A stretch of 59,106 nt of DNA from positions 1 to 59,106 of the forward strand of contig JAZSQL010000034.1 in NCBI GenBank assembly GCA_045537965.1. The letters run 5' to 3'. Shown here piece after piece: positions 7,916-59,034 of this stretch (the first letter of the stretch is position 1; the number at the start of each line of letters is the position of its first letter). The translations under genes were made by a program, and so were the position numbers. Under the pieces are notes generated by a model. That model was not told the origin of the DNA. It did not search any database and saw only the letters and a program-made list of their open reading frames with translations. The DNA is from Alphaproteobacteria bacterium. Its GTDB lineage: Bacteria > Pseudomonadota > Alphaproteobacteria > RF32 > CAG-239.

Positions 7916-8252
7916 ATTTGCTCCTTTTTCTTCTTTACATAGGTATTTATCATTACAACTTGTAATTTTTTATTTTAGCAAATTCACTTATTTAACTGAT
8001 AAATACATGTGAAGTTAATAATTGCCTTTTACTTCATTAATATGTTTTTTAACAAATGAGTGCGATGGGAATTTCTATTGCACTTTTTTTGTTTTAAGTG
8101 AGTTAAATCCCTTTGATTTCCTTATGCTTGCTATTTTAATCAAAACAAATTTTGCTATTATAATAGCTATTTTATTTCTATTATAATTATATTATAGGAG
8201 CAAAAAACAGCTCTCAAGCCCTTGTGTATCAACAGTTTCAGCAAAGTGCGGC

Positions 8253-8396
8253 GGAAATATCTGTTTCCGTATAAGGAAATAACCGTTTCCGCATAAGGAA
8301 ATAACCGTTTCCGATAGTGGAAATATTCATTTCCATTTGGCGTTTTAGTGGAAATATTCATTTCCACTGAGGTTTTAGGTGGAAATATTCATTTCC
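8253..8396. repeat. Iteron-like array of six 16-bp palindromes GGAAAT-N4-RTTTCC
   Basis: Units start at 8253, 8275, 8297, 8319, 8350, 8381 (periods 22,22,22,31,31). Confidence 0.9.
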
Positions 8397-8477
8397 GGTA
8401 GCATTTTTTGTTAAAATTACAAAGTGTAAAATTTGCCGATAAATACTCATGTTAAAATACATATTAAAGGAATTAAA

Positions 8478-8624
8478 ATGAGTGAAAGACAAAGAAAGCT
8501 CACAATTACAGAGCGTTTAATTTTAACATATATCGGTTATAAAACCAATCGCAACTTCAAATTTTTTATGACAAACGAGACGCTGGCAAAGGCGATTTGC
8601 TGTAAAACTTCATCAACCAAAGTT
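8478..8624 (+). pseudogene. Truncated winged-HTH protein (paralog of 13221-13706)
   Basis: MSERQRKLTITERLILTYIGYKTNRNFKFFMTNETLAKAICCKTSSTKV matches copy 2, then similarity stops abruptly. Confidence 0.8.
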
Positions 8625-11492
8625 ATAAATTACACCGGCAGGCATATCTGGTGTTGCTTTTACAACAGCATTCATACCGGTCGGGTTCTTTTCTACATCA
8701 GGATTTTCTTTAATATATTCCAACAAATCCAAGCGAAATTCATTTAATCCCAAATCCATAATGGATATGCTTGAACCCATTTCTTCTATATCAACTACTT
8801 CGGTTTGCAACTTTTCAAGCTGTTGCTTACGATATGATAAATCTGGGTCGTCTTCCGGATTGATAACATTATCATTACCTCCTGCCGTTAAGTTTACAGC
8901 TTTCATTCTGCCTTCAACACGAGCTTTTAACTTGATATATTCATCTAATTCTACCGGAGCCCAGAAGTTTACAAGTTGGATTACTGTGTTTCTGCTTCCG
9001 ATACGGTCAATACGCCCGAAACGCTGGATAATGCGAACTGGGTTCCAATGGATATCATAGTTAATCAAGTAGTCGCAATCTTGTAGGTTTTGACCTTCGG
9101 AGATACAATCTGTTGCAATCAAAATATCAATGTTTGCAGGAATATCAGGCAATAACAAATGCTTTTCTTTTGATATTGGAGAAAAACAAGTCAAAACAGT
9201 ATTCATATCTTGCGGTAATTTGGCAATAGTGCTTTTACCTTCAACCGAACCACTGATTACAGCAGAATCTAAACCGAAGTTATCTTTTACATATTTTGAA
9301 ATATTGTCATATAAGTAGTTTGCAGTATCGGCAAAAGCTGTAAAGATTATAATTTTCTTGTTGTTATAATTGATTGGACGTTCAATCTTTTTCTTAATTT
9401 GCTCTTTTAAGGTTTGTAGCTTAAAGTCATCTTCAACCCCGATAGAGCTTGTTTCTTTATATAAATGTTCCAAAATATGAGCATCAGCTCTTAAATCTCG
9501 TTTCCAAGATTGATAATCCATATCTTTTAAGGATATGCTTATCTTGTTTCCGGTTGAAACATCATAATCGTCATCAAAGTCTTCAAATTCGCTAAAATCA
9601 TTGATTAGCTCATAATTGTTCTTTTTCTTTTCAAAAAGTTCAATGTTTTCAATAGTTCTGTTGATGCGTTCAATTATACGAGCCAATGTTTGGTTAAACG
9701 AATAAACAGAGCTTTCCATGCGTTTCATAAGGTTAATACTCATCAAACGACGAATACCTTGTTCACGGTCTGCTTGCTTGAAGAATACACCGTGGCTTAC
9801 ATCTCTTCCGTATTTTTCTTCATATTCATCACGTTTACTTTCGTAGATGTATGCTGATGGAGTGTAAACACATAAGGTTAATTGAAGTAAATCTGCAAAA
9901 ATCTCTTTATAGGATATTGTTCCTGCTTTTAAACTTAATTGCGGACGGTGATTAATTGGTAATAATCTGTCTGGGAATTTGCCAATATCCGAGGTATTAT
10001 AATATTTTTCAATATGTTTACGAGAACGAGCAATCGTTACACTATCAAGCAAATCAAAGAAATCAAAACTTAACATATTAAGCAAACGGCTTGCTGTTCT
10101 TTCTTCTATCGGTAGTTGATTCCAATGATTGTAGCTTCTTTGAGCTTCTCTAAATATTTGTTCTACATTTTTGCCTTCGCCCAGTTTTTCGTTTAATTGC
10201 TTTGCATTTCCTTCATAAGCAAGGGCAAGTTGGTTTTTCAAATCTATAAATTGATTGTTTACAGGTGTTGCAGAAAGCATTAAAACTTTGGTTCTTACAC
10301 CTTTTCTGATAACTTTGTTGAGCAATATATTATAGCGATTGTCTTTCTGTTCACCTTCATTGTCCAAATATGATTGACCACCGTTACGGAAGTTATGACT
10401 TTCATCAATAACCACTAAATCATAATTGCTCCAATTGATTTTGCCCAAATCAAGACCGTTTGATTTTCCTCTTACACGAGATAAATCTGTATGATAAAGA
10501 ACATCATAACGAAGTCTATCCGATGCAATCGGGTTATTTACATAGTTTTCTTTATAGGTTGTCCAGTTATCGCTTAACTTTTTAGGACATAGCACTAAAA
10601 CGTTTTTATTACGGTTTTCATAATATTTGATAACTGAAATTGCTGTAAATGTTTTACCAAGACCGACACTATCTGCTAAAATACAGCCATTGTATTTTTC
10701 CAGCTTATTAATAATGGCAAGACAAGCATCCTTTTGGAAGTTATAAAGTTTGTTCCAAATAGCACTTTCCTTAAATCCGGTAGCTGTGTTTGGCAAAACA
10801 TCTTCGTTAATATCATCCAAAAATTCATTAAAAATGTTAAAAAGTGTAAAGAAATAAACAAATTCCGGTGAATTTTCATTATAAACCGAGCTGATACTTT
10901 CAATAATTTCTTCTGTTACATCTTGTAATTGCTCTTTATCAGTCCAAAGTTCATTAAAGTGTTGAAGATATCCCTTACTCATAGGTGCTTCAAACTTATT
11001 GATGATACAAAAACAATTATTTCCTTTTTCACAACCTAAATCAACCGTTGTGAAGCCATTTACAGGATAATAAGCACAGCTTGTATTGTCTTCGTTTTCA
11101 ACATTAATAAGACCTGGAATTGTATGTCCTGTTTTGTTAGATTTGAAGCGAACTTTATTTTTAATCCATTCGGCACATTCTTTTGCAATAGCTTTTTGCG
11201 TTAGTTCATTACGAAGTTTTACTTCAAATTCTGTTCCATAGATGCTCTTTTCACGAGCCAGTCTTGGTATATAAAACTCTCTCTTTTCTTTTGGTGTCTT
11301 TTCGGTAATAAATGTCGGTGATGTAAAAATAAAGCGAAGTTCTTCAATATTTTCTAATTGCTTCTTTAATTCAGCAAAAGCATATATAGAAAAATATGCA
11401 GAAGCTATTGAAAGCTTTGCATTCTTCTTTATCTCAACGGTTAAATCATCTTTCAAAATAGATGATACGTTATCAAAGGCTTTAATCTCCAT
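8613..11492 (-). CDS. SNF2-family helicase with N-terminal PLD-like region, probably C-terminally truncated
   Basis: ADSVGLGKT (Walker A), DESHN, LSATP, ISEGQNLQ, QRFGRIDRIGS; ends at the junction with the truncated wHTH gene. Confidence 0.88.
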   Translation of the reverse strand: MEIKAFDNVSSILKDDLTVEIKKNAKLSIASAYFSIYAFAELKKQLENIEELRFIFTSPTFITEKTPKEKREFYIPRLAREKSIYGTEFEVKLRNELTQKAIAKECAEWIKNKVRFKSNKTGHTIPGLINVENEDNTSCAYYPVNGFTTVDLGCEKGNNCFCIINKFEAPMSKGYLQHFNELWTDKEQLQDVTEEIIESISSVYNENSPEFVYFFTLFNIFNEFLDDINEDVLPNTATGFKESAIWNKLYNFQKDACLAIINKLEKYNGCILADSVGLGKTFTAISVIKYYENRNKNVLVLCPKKLSDNWTTYKENYVNNPIASDRLRYDVLYHTDLSRVRGKSNGLDLGKINWSNYDLVVIDESHNFRNGGQSYLDNEGEQKDNRYNILLNKVIRKGVRTKVLMLSATPVNNQFIDLKNQLALAYEGNAKQLNEKLGEGKNVEQIFREAQRSYNHWNQLPIEERTASRLLNMLSFDFFDLLDSVTIARSRKHIEKYYNTSDIGKFPDRLLPINHRPQLSLKAGTISYKEIFADLLQLTLCVYTPSAYIYESKRDEYEEKYGRDVSHGVFFKQADREQGIRRLMSINLMKRMESSVYSFNQTLARIIERINRTIENIELFEKKKNNYELINDFSEFEDFDDDYDVSTGNKISISLKDMDYQSWKRDLRADAHILEHLYKETSSIGVEDDFKLQTLKEQIKKKIERPINYNNKKIIIFTAFADTANYLYDNISKYVKDNFGLDSAVISGSVEGKSTIAKLPQDMNTVLTCFSPISKEKHLLLPDIPANIDILIATDCISEGQNLQDCDYLINYDIHWNPVRIIQRFGRIDRIGSRNTVIQLVNFWAPVELDEYIKLKARVEGRMKAVNLTAGGNDNVINPEDDPDLSYRKQQLEKLQTEVVDIEEMGSSISIMDLGLNEFRLDLLEYIKENPDVEKNPTGMNAVVKATPDMPAGVIYNFG

Positions 11493-11654
11493 ATATCACC
11501 GTCTATATTATATACCAATCCACCATAAATAATACGGTTAAGATTTTCAAAAATCAATCTAAAAATCAAGCTATTATCAAGTATTTTCTAGGAGTTACAA
11601 AAGCACACAGTTTCATATAGTTACCTCTATTGACTAGACGGTGATATGTGGAGA
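11486..11654. promoter_or_regulatory. Promoter segment flanked by 20-bp inverted repeats (candidate invertible promoter)
   Basis: TCTCCATATATCACCGTCTA (11486-11505) vs TAGACGGTGATATGTGGAGA (11635-11654), 19/20; minus-strand TTGATT-N17-TATTAT and TGGTATAAT inside. Confidence 0.65.
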
Positions 11655-11735
11655 GTGTTTATTTTTAATACCAAATTCAACTAAAATCCTAGTAATTCCT
11701 ATAAATAGTTAAGTAAACTATTAAAGGAATTCATT

Positions 11736-12359
11736 ATGATTTATGGATATTGTAGAATCAGCACATCGCAACAAACTGTTCTTAACCAAAGGCACGAAAT
11801 ACAAGCTTTTGCCGAGAAAAACAATCTAAAAATTGATAAATGGCTTGATGAGGTCATTTCTTCCAGAAAACCTCTAAATGAGCGAAAACTAGGAAAATTA
11901 CTCAAAAAATTAAAAAAAGGCGATATCTTAATAGCTTCTGAGCTTTCTCGATTGGGAAGAAATCTGCTCGAAGTAATGGGAATTTTACAAAATTGCCTCG
12001 AAAAAGACTGTCAAATATGGACTTTGAAAGAAAATTATAGACTTGGAGCGGATATTCAATCAAAAGTTTTGGCTTTTGCCTTTTCCTTGGCTTCTGAAAT
12101 AGAACGTCAACTCATCTCTGAACGCACTAAAAATTCGCTTCAAAGGCTAAAAGATGAAGGAAAGCATTTGGGCAGACCATATGGTTTTACTTATAAAAAG
12201 CTTGAAAAAAAGCATAACAAAATAAAAGAATTGTTAGATAAAAATGTATCAAAATCAGAAATCGCAAGGCTTATGGGTTGTACTTGGGCTACTTTACATA
12301 GATATGTAAATGAGGCATTTCCTAATAAGGCATTACAAGATGTAATTTCAGAACCATAA
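11736..12359 (+). CDS. Serine recombinase, Mpi-like DNA invertase family
   Basis: MIYGYCRIST catalytic Ser, ELSRLGRN, IWTLKENYRLGADIQSKVLAFAF..EIERQLISERTK, GRP, C-terminal HTH. Confidence 0.9.
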   Translation: MIYGYCRISTSQQTVLNQRHEIQAFAEKNNLKIDKWLDEVISSRKPLNERKLGKLLKKLKKGDILIASELSRLGRNLLEVMGILQNCLEKDCQIWTLKENYRLGADIQSKVLAFAFSLASEIERQLISERTKNSLQRLKDEGKHLGRPYGFTYKKLEKKHNKIKELLDKNVSKSEIARLMGCTWATLHRYVNEAFPNKALQDVISEP

Positions 12360-12823
12360 TAAATCCGTCGTCTAATAGATATTTAGCGTTTTATATTGTC
12401 GCATTTTATTGTCTTTTATTCTGATTATGTTCCATATTGCGTGTGAAATGTTATAAAGTCAATTGTTTTATTAAATTTGCTAAGTGTAGATAACATCTAT
12501 GTTAAACAATATAGCCAAACTCAACAAAGTTTAACATTTTATATTTCAGCCTTAACAACACAAAAATAAAATACTAGTAAAATAGCCAATTACAGAGAAA
12601 ATGTTAAAAAATGTGTCTTCTTTAACATTTAAATATTTGTCAAATTTATATGAAGCTCTATCATATTTTTAATAAATTTAATCTGTTCTTTCATTTCTAA
12701 AATTTCCTCTCTGTGCTCTATAAAAAAGTTGATATTAATACTCAATTTTATAGTATTTTCACTATAACTTGACGCACCAATTTGGAGAGGGTTGGCAAAA
12801 TTTTTTGCTAACCCTACGTTTTG

Positions 12824-14347: not shown

Positions 14348-14554
14348 ATGAAAATTAAAAACATCAAAGATATTGCATCTAAAATAAAAGATGAAAGAAA
14401 AAAACAAAATTTAACTCAAACCCAGTTGGCAGGACTTTGTAATGTGGGATTGCGTTTTATTGTTGATTTGGAAGCTGGCAAAGAAACTTGCCAAGTTGGT
14501 AAGGTTTTATTGGTTCTAGATATATTAGGTATTGATTTGATTACGGAGGATTAA
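14348..14554 (+). CDS. hipB: HipB-like XRE antitoxin
   Basis: RKKQNLTQTQLAGLCNVGLRFIVDLEAGKET..GKVL; directly upstream of hipA. Confidence 0.9.
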   Translation: MKIKNIKDIASKIKDERKKQNLTQTQLAGLCNVGLRFIVDLEAGKETCQVGKVLLVLDILGIDLITED

Positions 14555-14555
14555 T

Positions 14556-15785
14556 ATGCCGATTTTAGATGTATATTTCTATGGCAAATTGGTTGGTAAA
14601 CTAACCGAAAAGAACTCTCACTTGAACTTTAAGTATCTGCCGGATGTCACCACACCTATATCCATAAATTTACCGCTTCAAGAGAATTCTTTTTCAGACA
14701 AAGAAACTCGCAGTTTTTTCAATAATTTGCTTCCGGAAGAAGGAATAAGAGATGCGGTCGCTCGTTATAAACAAATATCAAGTAATAATCCCTTTGCACT
14801 ATTAAAAGAAATCGGCGGTGAATGTGCCGGTGCTGTTGAATTGTATCCTGAAGGTGTTTCAAGAGAAGCAGAAACAAGTGAATTAAAACCGATATCAACT
14901 AAGAAAATATCTGAGGTTTTATTAAATCAAGCCCAAATACCTCTACTTACAGGAGAAGAAATCCGCTTATCTCTTGCCGGTGCCCAACAAAAAATAGCAT
15001 TATGTATAATTCCTGATGATAGTGATAACTATTACTTACCTTGTGGAGAATATATTTCTACCCATATCATAAAACCACAAAACCCATATTTTGAAGACAT
15101 TATATATAATGAGAACTTTTGTATGAGATTAGCTGGCAAAATCGGTTTACCGACAGCACATTCGGATATTAGAGAATTTAACGGAGTAAAAGCCTATATT
15201 GTCAAACGATTTGACAGAGAAAATAATTCATTAAAACTATCCGGTTTAGAAAGAATACATCAAGAAGATTTTTGCCAAGCATTGATGTTGCCTGATAAAA
15301 AATATCAAAAAGAAGGCGGAGCAAGCATAAAACAATGTTATAAACTAATCAGAAATGCTGATTTCGTAAGAAAAGCCGATACTCTTATTACATATTTGCA
15401 AACAATAGTGTTTAATTTTATTATCGGCAATTCAGATGCTCATGGAAAAAACTTTTCATTGCTTCATAAAAAAGGCAAATACGAGCTTTCGCCATTATAT
15501 GATTTGGTTTCAACGCAGGTCTATGAAACACTCTCAGTCAATATGGCAATGTCTGTTGATGGCGAATATAATCCAAATCACATAACAAAGCAACATTTCT
15601 TAAATTTGGCAAAAGACTTGGAAATTAAACCTAATGTAATGGAAAACATTATAAATGATTTGGCTGACAAAATATTAAAAACTGTTTCTGAATTAAAAAA
15701 CGAATTACAAGCACAAGATTTATATTCCCCGATAATTGATAAGATTGAGCTTCTTATAAGCAAAAGAATAAAACAGCTAGTTTAG
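14556..15785 (+). CDS. hipA: HipA Ser/Thr kinase toxin
   Basis: FFNNLLPE, SLAGAQQK, RFDR, HQEDFCQA, IGNSDAHGKNFS, LSPLYD. Confidence 0.95.
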   Translation: MPILDVYFYGKLVGKLTEKNSHLNFKYLPDVTTPISINLPLQENSFSDKETRSFFNNLLPEEGIRDAVARYKQISSNNPFALLKEIGGECAGAVELYPEGVSREAETSELKPISTKKISEVLLNQAQIPLLTGEEIRLSLAGAQQKIALCIIPDDSDNYYLPCGEYISTHIIKPQNPYFEDIIYNENFCMRLAGKIGLPTAHSDIREFNGVKAYIVKRFDRENNSLKLSGLERIHQEDFCQALMLPDKKYQKEGGASIKQCYKLIRNADFVRKADTLITYLQTIVFNFIIGNSDAHGKNFSLLHKKGKYELSPLYDLVSTQVYETLSVNMAMSVDGEYNPNHITKQHFLNLAKDLEIKPNVMENIINDLADKILKTVSELKNELQAQDLYSPIIDKIELLISKRIKQLV

Positions 15786-18822: not shown

Positions 18823-19001
18823 ATTACATCTCCTAAAATATTGCGTTAAACCGAACATTTAAATTCAATATCTATATTTGTCATATCATATTTTTGTATA
18901 ATATTCAATAACAAATAAAAACAAAGATTTCCTAATGTTTGGTTAGCATATCTCACAACTCCTTAAAATGTTGTGAAAATCTTTCCCTTTATTTTCAATC
19001 T

Positions 19002-19166
19002 GTTGGAAGACCAAAGGGTAGGAAAAATACAATTACAAAGCTAACGGGTAAAGAAGAGTTGATAGAAAATTTATTAGCACAGAATATCCAAAAAACAAAA
19101 ATAGCAGAAATGTTAAACGTTGATTATAAAACACTATATACATATCTAAAACAAAAGGCGGAATAA
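19002..19166 (+). pseudogene. C-terminal GRP/HTH remnant of serine resolvase/invertase
   Basis: VGRPKGRKN..KL...KTKIAEMLNVDYKTLYTYL; no catalytic domain. Confidence 0.75.
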
Positions 19167-19181
19167 ATCCGCCCTTTATAA

Positions 19182-19441
19182 TTACAATCCAAAATTCTCT
19201 TTATATCGGTAATAAGTTGGTTTAGTAATTCCATATTTTTTAAGAATTTCACATACTCGCACCTTATTTTTTATATCACTTTTCAATTCTTCTTGTTGTA
19301 AAATAGATATTTTTTTACATCTCTCTTTACTATAAACACCTTTCTGTTTAGCGATAGCAATACCCTCGGCTTGACGCATTTTAATCATATTTCTTTCAAA
19401 TTCAGCTATAGAACCAATGATTTGAAGTGTTAATTTATTAA
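19182..19441 (-). pseudogene. C-terminal remnant of a second serine resolvase
   Basis: NKLTLQIIGSIAEFERNMIKMRQAEGIAIAKQKGVY...GITKPTYYRY. Confidence 0.8.
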
Positions 19442-58617: not shown

Positions 58618-58805
58618 AAACACGACTATTTTAGCATTGGATGATAAATTAAGAGTGACAATAATGGGGCTCGTTTCACTTACTCAAAGTGTGACTGTGC
58701 TAAGGAGATTCTTCAATTAAAAAGCTTGGAATAACTTTATTTATTCAAACGGTAACTTTGATTATATTTCATTGATAATATTTTGTAAAAACAGATGGTT
58801 ACCAA

Positions 58806-59004
58806 CCTAAAACCTTGCAAAAAACTGAACAGTTTTTTTCAATATATATTTTAATTATATAGCAAAAAAAGTAAAAAAGCAATTAACTTGTTTTTATTAC
58901 ATGTTTTCAATGTGTTATATTCTTTTTATTTTTTTTATTTTCACTTTAAATATTCGTTCAAAAAACCTTGAAAAAAACTGTTCAGTTTTTTGCAAGGTTT
59001 TAGG
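58806..59004. promoter_or_regulatory. Candidate invertible promoter: perfect 37-bp inverted repeats
   Basis: 58806-58842 is the exact reverse complement of 58968-59004; minus-strand TTGCTT-N17-TATAAT at 58882-58854. Confidence 0.8.
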
Positions 59005-59034
59005 GATAGGTTTAGATATAAAGGAGATAAGGTT

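Follow-up and report, generated by a model that had tools for sequence, protein, structure and literature searches.

The window, a stretch of 59,106 bp that makes up an entire contig (C4) of a 1.58-Mb genome (G000; 33% G+C, 58 contigs), contains a short DNA segment that is bounded by inverted repeats and lies between two divergent genes. One of these genes encodes an SNF2-family helicase and the other encodes a small serine recombinase of the Mpi family. The segment resembles an invertible promoter (inverton) and is the subject of this study. Related public records are titled as uncultured gut Alphaproteobacteria metagenome-assembled genomes (MAGs), in keeping with the alphaproteobacterial host named in the initial annotation of this DNA. 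The features of the locus are collected in Table 1.

The arms of the inverted repeat, TCTCCATATATCACCGTCTA on the left and TAGACGGTGATATGTGGAGA on the right, are 20 nt long, complementary at 19/20 positions (95%) and separated by 129 nt. When the 59-kb window is scanned for inverted repeats that agree in at least 19/20 positions and are 50-300 bp apart, two places are found, namely these arms and an unrelated repeat family at 58805-59005, whereas 0/20 block-shuffled windows contain any. The start codon of the helicase gene lies inside the outer half-site of the left arm (CAT at 11490-11492) and GGTGA precedes it. The sole mismatch between the arms falls on this codon, and the ATG position of the left arm is GTG in the right arm. 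In the window itself, the inner half-site matches the outer one in only 4/12 places. A promoter consensus scan detects TTGATT-17-TATTAT on the minus strand of the interior (11557 to 11529). As assembled, this motif is aimed at the helicase, which is the ON orientation. The initial annotation had described the repeat, the promoter elements pointing at the helicase, and the overlap of the left repeat with the ribosome-binding site and start codon, and all three are borne out. It had also placed an intact recombinase gene 82 bp away; the open reading frame (ORF) is indeed intact, and the gap is 81 nt.

Table 1. Features of the repeat-flanked segment and its surroundings (positions are those of the window)
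Feature	Position	Strand	Description
SNF2-family helicase, PADLOC candidate 'HKD+Snf2'	8613..11492	minus	959 aa, 3′-truncated; homology to full-length relatives ends at ~8625
Putative left crossover site (arm A)	11486..11505		outer half-site TCTCCATATATC, central AC 11498-11499, inner half-site CGTCTA
Putative invertible interior	11506..11634	minus	129 bp; predicted promoter TTGATT-17-TATTAT plus TATAAT adjoining the left arm; aimed at the helicase
Putative right crossover site (arm B)	11635..11654		inner half-site TAGACG, central GT 11641-11642, outer half-site GATATGTGGAGA
Recombinase leader	11655..11735	plus	81 nt; palindrome 11704-11722 just 5′ of the ribosome-binding site
Small serine DNA invertase, Mpi family	11736..12359	plus	207 aa, intact, without stops; begins 81 nt past the right arm
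Partial third site (site C)	12361..12374		AAATCC-GT-CGTCTA; direct orientation to arm B by its GT centre

The recombinase has the layout of the small serine recombinases. It has an N-terminal Resolvase domain (Pfam; residues 2-143, E 1.2e-30) and a weak C-terminal HTH_7 match (residues 155-193; 21.2 bits, just under the cut-off of 23.8). Its N-terminus, MIYGYCRISTSQQ, contains YCRISTSQQ, and the serine of this R-x-S-T motif is what we take, from work on resolvases, to be the nucleophile. The best matches among solved structures (E 2e-11 to 6e-10) are the DNA-invertase chains 4m6f (2e-11) and 3uj3 (8.5e-11) and the gamma-delta resolvase. The protein passes the NCBIfam model NF009949 'master DNA invertase Mpi family' by a small margin (275.5 bits vs. 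a cut-off of 272, profile positions 1-196 of 203; 274.9 bits in the genome-wide search). The genome has 11 matches to this model. Three exceed the cut-off (on C44, where the match contains one TAA stop, in the window, and on C57), two fall just under it (C51 and C14), two are weak and belong to divergent partner genes, and the rest are fragments. Five full-length recombinase paralogues are encoded in the genome. When the 20-mer arms are searched across the genome with up to 4 mismatches, only the pair of the switch, a degenerate pair of the C57 paralogue and one single site on C46 are found. Because only the local site pair matches the arms, the recombinase appears to serve its own adjacent pair only. 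The likeness to Mpi claimed in the initial annotation thus stands for the enzyme family and does not extend to the role of a 'master' invertase. Short fragments of the C-terminal part of the Mpi-family model also lie at 18999-19163 and 19194-19415 of the window, on opposite strands, as remains of another invertase gene.

Both orientations of the segment in related DNA

An orthologous locus in another MAG (L041/L121) carries the same arms around a 129-bp interior. Its flanks are closely related to those of the window (left flank, which is the 5′ end of the helicase gene, 380/400 identical; right flank, 329/401). Its interior aligns to that of the window only when it is reversed (85/130 identical, score 122), and the forward score of 38 is background, which over 300 shuffles has a mean of 39.3, a standard deviation of 7.1 and a maximum of 63. 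In L121, TTGATT-17-TATTAT stands at the same offset as in the window and on the opposite strand. Conservation of the motif in an interior of 65% identity is a better argument for a promoter than the scan that detects it.

Both orientations are also present in metagenomes. Positions 10900-12800 of the window were compared with Logan contigs (k = 31) from four metagenome runs of animal guts, each run belonging to a different study. In run X1, a contig of 2541 nt follows the window over 10900-11505 with 0 differences and continues with GTCAATAGAG, the reverse complement of 11625-11634, which is the flipped left junction. A second X1 contig of 169 nt corresponds exactly to arm-interior-arm, and a third covers 11625-12145 with the unflipped right junction. 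In run X4, the long contigs (10900-11515 and 11486-11664) have unflipped junctions. A 40-nt contig of this run matches only with its last 30 letters, on 11486-11515, and has the size (k + 9) and geometry expected of the flipped right junction. Flipped and unflipped junctions are therefore found in two runs, directly in X1 and by geometry in X4, and both orientations must be present there because a 20-bp repeat cannot otherwise split a k = 31 graph. Run X9 yields unflipped contigs only, and in run X10 the interior has no match at 88% likeness; neither bears on the absence of flipping. In JGI metagenome contigs, the helicase-plus-left-arm pattern gives 0 stretches and the right-arm pattern gives 12 stretches, none of which is related to the locus beyond the 21-mer. 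The initial annotation had proposed that the promoter is flipped and that its orientation be compared across genomes. That comparison agrees with the proposal: the segment is reversed in L041/L121 and in metagenome contigs, and has the window orientation in genomes G050 and G049. The occurrence of both orientations at this locus in nature, together with the adjacency of the enzyme, suggests that the recombinase is the flipper of the segment and, as other members of its family do, inverts short promoter segments.

The crossover point can be read from a deletion in genome G050. Over the end of the helicase gene and the switch, this genome shares 97-98% identity with the window, and a stretch of exactly 726 bp that includes the recombinase gene is missing from it. 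The sequence at the junction is TAGACG-GT-CGTCTA. The two parental sequences, TAGACG-GT-GATATG... in arm B and AAATCC-GT-CGTCTA at site C of the window, have only GT in common; the GT of arm B is the left join and site C is the right-hand end of the deletion. A serine recombinase would be expected to leave such a product, with the ends joined at a 2-bp overlap in the middle of an arm. Because G050 is joined in this way, the crossover is placed at 11641-11642 and, by symmetry, at the AC of 11498-11499, and the natural deletion fixes this point without an experiment. The promoter of G050 still faces the helicase, while neither the enzyme gene nor the outer half of the right arm is retained. Judged from these sequences, G050 would be a naturally locked-ON derivative, unless a paralogue acts on the remaining site. 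No comparable third site follows the recombinase gene at the 10 other loci inspected, and site C is particular to the window locus.

In the mechanism that we propose, each arm is a crossover site in which a non-palindromic dinucleotide at the centre (AC in the left arm, GT in the right) separates a 12-bp outer half-site from the inner one. The adjacent invertase would most likely occupy both sites, break the DNA at the two central dinucleotides and rejoin it after rotation, so that the segment is reversed. In the ON state, a presumably active sigma-70-type promoter would read leftwards via the inner half-site and the centre, which supply the Shine-Dalgarno-like GGTGA, to the ATG in the outer half-site. 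The minus-strand sequence up to the helicase start is TAGACGGTGATAT-ATG, and GGTGA is able to base-pair with the anti-Shine-Dalgarno region of the 16S rRNA. The same promoter, in the OFF state, would read rightwards through the 81-nt leader into the invertase gene, as it is oriented in L041, and the helicase would be off. Since the outer half-sites stay put and the two inner half-sites do not differ, both states would have the same ribosome-binding site and start codon, and a flip would alter the promoter direction only. Recombinase expression should depend on orientation because the OFF promoter faces the recombinase. The palindrome of the leader (AATAGTT-5-AACTATT) is conserved in paralogues (in L014 with altered letters) and may serve as an operator or form a hairpin in the RNA.

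The segment is very probably a real invertible promoter and a phase-variation switch. Several observations weigh against this reading or against its consequences in the window genome. The promoter scan gave 9 promoter-like sites where shuffles gave 5.9 +/- 2.1, so the motif alone is weak evidence. The reversed interior of L041 is only 65% identical to that of the window while the flanks are 82-95% identical. The Logan data are contigs of metagenomes that possibly contain several strains and not reads of one clone; X1 offers one junction per orientation, and the flipped junction of X4 rests on 30 of 40 letters. The three close genomes (window, G050 and G049) are all in the same orientation. The target itself is damaged, as the helicase departs from its relatives after residue 955 of ~1088 and the last ~133 residues are missing. 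The HxK motif is absent from all 959 helicase residues, despite the 'HKD+Snf2' name of the PADLOC model. DUF4391 and the type III methyltransferase (Mod) and restriction enzyme (Res), which accompany the helicase in related operons, have no tblastn match at E <= 1e-5 in the 58 contigs of the genome.

The truncated helicase and the missing partner genes are also what would be seen if the switch were a fossil that inverted in the past of the lineage and in other strains and is now frozen ON in the window genome, without effect, its operon destroyed. The mismatch between the arms, the orientation shared with G050 and G049, and the loss of the recombinase gene already seen in G050 point the same way. 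However, the recombinase ORF of the window is intact and above the family cut-off, and the arms are still 19/20. In X1, the contig with the flipped junction matches 606 nt of the helicase of the window without a difference, and therefore very close strains still flip or did so recently; we consider the fossil improbable. It is far less probable again that the arms are operator or accessory sites, akin to res, through which the recombinase regulates its own gene and the neighbour without inversion. Like res in Tn3-type elements, the sites do occupy a region of divergent promoters, and binding at the left arm would cover the start region of the target on the DNA, but the reversed L041 interior, the flipped X1 junction and the two interior orientations across paralogous loci all require inversion. 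Least credible is the alternative raised in the initial annotation, in which the arms pair in the mRNA as a hairpin and hide the ribosome-binding site and ATG. A 201-nt RNA spanning both arms does fold with the arms paired (-49.8 kcal/mol, z = -4.4), but any inverted repeat would trivially give such a fold. Because the conserved promoter is located between the arms, its transcript has the left arm only. The 129-nt loop, the dyad-symmetric arms and the deletion end at an arm centre suit a recombination site and not an attenuator.

Related loci and their presumed target genes

Relatives of the recombinase were collected within the genome of the window, within its genus and among public genomes, and 88 distinct upstream regions were examined. 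Arm pairs were sought with a position-aware screen (<=3 mismatches in 16, right arm ~100 nt before the recombinase ATG, gap of 90-140 bp), which replaced a first screen (<=1 mismatch in 14) that missed many pairs. An arm pair is present in 35/88 regions, and 31 remain after four AT-rich pairs that are not site-like (L035, L011, L057 and L099) are dropped. L035 is the C57 paralogue; its true pair is degenerate, with 4 mismatches to the window arm in each copy. The arm sequences vary among loci yet remain complementary, for example TCTACAAAAACCACCC..., CATAAACCACCGTTTA and TTCAAAAATCACCGTTTTTG. Many left arms are dyad-symmetric around a 2-bp centre (L021, TCTCCATAAATG-AC-CATTTATGGAGA). The centres of the family are non-palindromic; most are AC, and TC, TT, AG, CT and CC also occur. 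By these comparisons the arms appear to be a conserved, co-varying pair of invertase crossover sites. Among the 31 interiors, 17 group with that of L003, in which the promoter motifs face the recombinase, four group with the window, and 10 are unassigned.

The genes on the left of these switches are diverse. ORF starts were listed for 27 loci, and 18 left neighbours were scanned. The 18 comprise two further helicases, one BrxA, one type ISP restriction enzyme, two GT2 and one GT11 glycosyltransferases, one methyltransferase, six weak recombinase-type matches (five of them helix-turn-helix only), three unknown proteins and that of L037, which has no Pfam match; L037 and others are read as recombinase-like on the basis of tblastn and inspection of their sequences. 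The left ORF starts on the CAT of the outer half-site (offset 1-3) in 7/27 loci listed, with an eighth, a 33-aa ORF, left out. The seven ORFs encode a helicase (twice), BrxA, the type ISP enzyme, a GT2, a GT11 and a 179-aa product.

Two side observations extend to other loci. The left gene of many paralogous switches encodes a diverged recombinase-like protein whose N-terminus lacks R-x-S-T (e.g. GYLDNSQ, GYIQNNED). Examples are C51:2488-3051, C57:71732-72292 and the genes of L008, L009, L015, L055, L062 and L063; such a gene appears to be a dead copy of the invertase. Separately, a cassette with Hin-like dyad sites, CCTCTACAAAAAC...GTTTTTGTAGAGG, a ~137-nt interior with TTGCTT-17-TATACT and conserved flanks occurs in six copies (C17:163-341, C35:47605-47783, C39:835-1012, C48:62-240, C57:79127-79305 and C42:12491-12665). 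It has the same orientation in 6/6 and several copies lie at contig ends. This cassette may be a multi-locus promoter-switch family that is served in trans.

The helicase of the window contains the Pfam domains SNF2-rel_dom, Helicase_C and ResIII. It matches the PADLOC model PDLC01075 'HKD+Snf2' with 407 bits, and the match is short of full length (residues 7-942 on profile positions 6-824 of 948), whereas the relative at locus L146 spans profile positions 10-947. The nearest homologues are 1083-1091 aa long, and one of these, P0001 (1088 aa), is 99% identical. Of residues 931-1088 of P0001, the 58 contigs of the genome encode only the first 26 (931-956), at 8702-8625. The L146 operon encodes an SNF2 helicase of 1090 aa, a DUF4391 protein of 227 aa, a type III methyltransferase (PDLC03634, 730 bits) and a type III restriction enzyme. 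In G072, the genome of L041, the helicase, DUF4391, type III Mod and type III Res genes all stand in line. The initial annotation had proposed a phase-variable defence operon; the defence-type helicase is upheld by its PADLOC match, and the operon is not, as the target is truncated and DUF4391, Mod and Res are absent. The switch of the window genome therefore drives a remnant, although it probably still flips, and a defence phenotype in this genome is doubtful. Past the break of the helicase, 8100-8625 contains iteron-like repeats at ~8270-8420 (a ~18-nt unit three times and a ~21-nt unit twice) and the start of a short plus-strand ORF near 8486. This region looks like the edge of a replacement or insertion that took out the rest of the operon.

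The SNF2 helicase family (L146-L224) is found at ~40-65% identity in many phyla, including Bacillota, Bacteroidota, Spirochaetota and Saccharibacteria, a pattern that fits horizontal spread. An Mpi-like gene stands beside the helicase in only 1/79 loci from many phyla (L146, 80% identical), and L160 has a distant one (27%). The switch therefore belongs to the lineage and not to the helicase.

A closely related module precedes another kind of defence system in G049. It has the same arms, is 87% identical to the window over 11488-12313 (95% over the first 253 nt) and lies ahead of a complete BREX type 1 operon (brxA, brxB, brxC, pglX, pglZ and brxL). The module thus has two unrelated targets, the helicase in the window and brxA in G049. 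The homology of the two modules begins within the outer half-site, and both targets use the ATG embedded in that half-site. One speculative explanation, which we hold to be rather unlikely, is that 'arm - promoter - arm - invertase gene' is a portable phase-variation cassette that moves between defence loci by its own site-specific recombination and is able to lock a locus by excising its own gene. The start of unrelated target genes at the half-site CAT across the family is consistent with this idea, and the 726-bp loss of G050 would release a circle with the invertase gene and a hybrid site. If such a cassette exists, gut Alphaproteobacteria would possess a mobile 'on/off knob' with which newly gained defence systems can be fitted.

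Comparison with known switches

The recombinase and its sites share features with several known switches. Like Hin/hix of Salmonella and Gin, Cin and Pin, the system has a serine invertase, and its best structure matches are named DNA-invertase. Its sites resemble Hin/Gin-type crossover sites, in that two half-sites of ~12 bp form a dyad-symmetric site around a non-palindromic 2-bp centre and the two sites are inverted; the half-sites are of the type ...CAAAAACC. In Hin/Gin-type systems the invertase gene is located within or next to a segment of ~1-3 kb, and a Fis-bound enhancer is required. In contrast, the segment here is 129 bp long and the invertase gene is outside it. The fimS switch of Escherichia coli, with its orientation-dependent fimE, is likewise a promoter switch next to a recombinase gene, and orientation-dependent recombinase expression is expected here as well. 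FimB and FimE are tyrosine recombinases and the fimS segment is 314 bp long; there is no sequence relation to the system described here. The type III mod phasevarions of Haemophilus, Neisseria and Helicobacter provide a parallel in the ON/OFF variation of a type III restriction-modification unit. Phasevarion mod genes switch by slippage of simple repeats within the gene, whereas the switch here works by promoter inversion.

The closest parallel is the Mpi system with the invertible polysaccharide promoters of Bacteroides fragilis. It shares with the window a small serine recombinase of the Mpi-family model, short promoter segments between ~20-bp inverted repeats, ON/OFF expression and a gut commensal host. 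Mpi is described as a serine recombinase with 13 invertible regions as its targets, of which seven are polysaccharide promoters (PMC4747536, PMC5903667). Unlike Mpi, which acts globally on distant loci, the enzyme of the window has arms that are matched only by the adjacent pair at <=4 mismatches in 20, the degenerate C57 pair and the single C46 site aside. The host here is an alphaproteobacterium and hence of another phylum, and the targets of the family are restriction and BREX-type systems. Moreover, the start codon of the target and the Shine-Dalgarno-like GGTGA lie inside the crossover site here, and the OFF promoter faces the invertase gene. Invertase-driven heterogeneity of anti-phage systems is itself known, as programmed inversions alter the PglX genes of BREX, DISARM-like genes and type I hsdS genes. 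In one study, Mpi-family recombinases are enriched next to such targets, BREX PglX and DISARM-like genes among them, with an odds ratio of 16.1 (PMC9881135). Those inversions recombine coding segments and change specificity, while at the loci described here the promoter before the first gene flips and a whole unit would be turned on or off. Another report describes how the survival of phages in B. fragilis is shaped by its phase-variable loci and its restriction systems (PMC11761130). A promoter inverton ahead of a BREX or SNF2/type III restriction-modification operon appears in none of the titles and abstracts searched, which is not proof of absence. The main text of DeepInverton has 0 occurrences of 'BREX' or 'serine'.

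Invertible promoters are best known for Bacteroides surface structures, and here the same enzyme family would switch anti-phage systems in uncultured gut Alphaproteobacteria. Among the systems switched in the family are a type III restriction operon that begins with the SNF2 gene, a BREX type 1 operon and a type ISP enzyme. Such a family would give on/off heterogeneity of anti-phage systems, with presumed switching rates and a presumed phage phenotype, and a population could hold costly or self-toxic defences in part of its cells only. Mpi-type promoter switching is known; the extensions here are the defence targets, the natural locked-ON deletion that maps the crossover and possibly the portable module. 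When such MAGs are read, the assembled orientation should be taken as one of two states. For the window genome the practical weight is small, the switched gene being a remnant.

Other features of the window

Further genes of the window are of related kinds. A PD-(D/E)XK protein at 5740-6903 matches the PADLOC candidate PDC-S26 with 412 bits, and a HipA kinase with a small HTH (helix-turn-helix) gene upstream lies at 14348-15785. The neighbourhood looks like a defence island. The second, unrelated inverted-repeat family mentioned above (58805-59005) is perfect, has arms of ~39 nt and a gap of ~125 nt, and lies at the end of the window. The same ~39-nt-arm family is present on three further contigs (C38:80-420, C49:4845-5020 and C6:13667-13845), and its copies are often close to contig ends.

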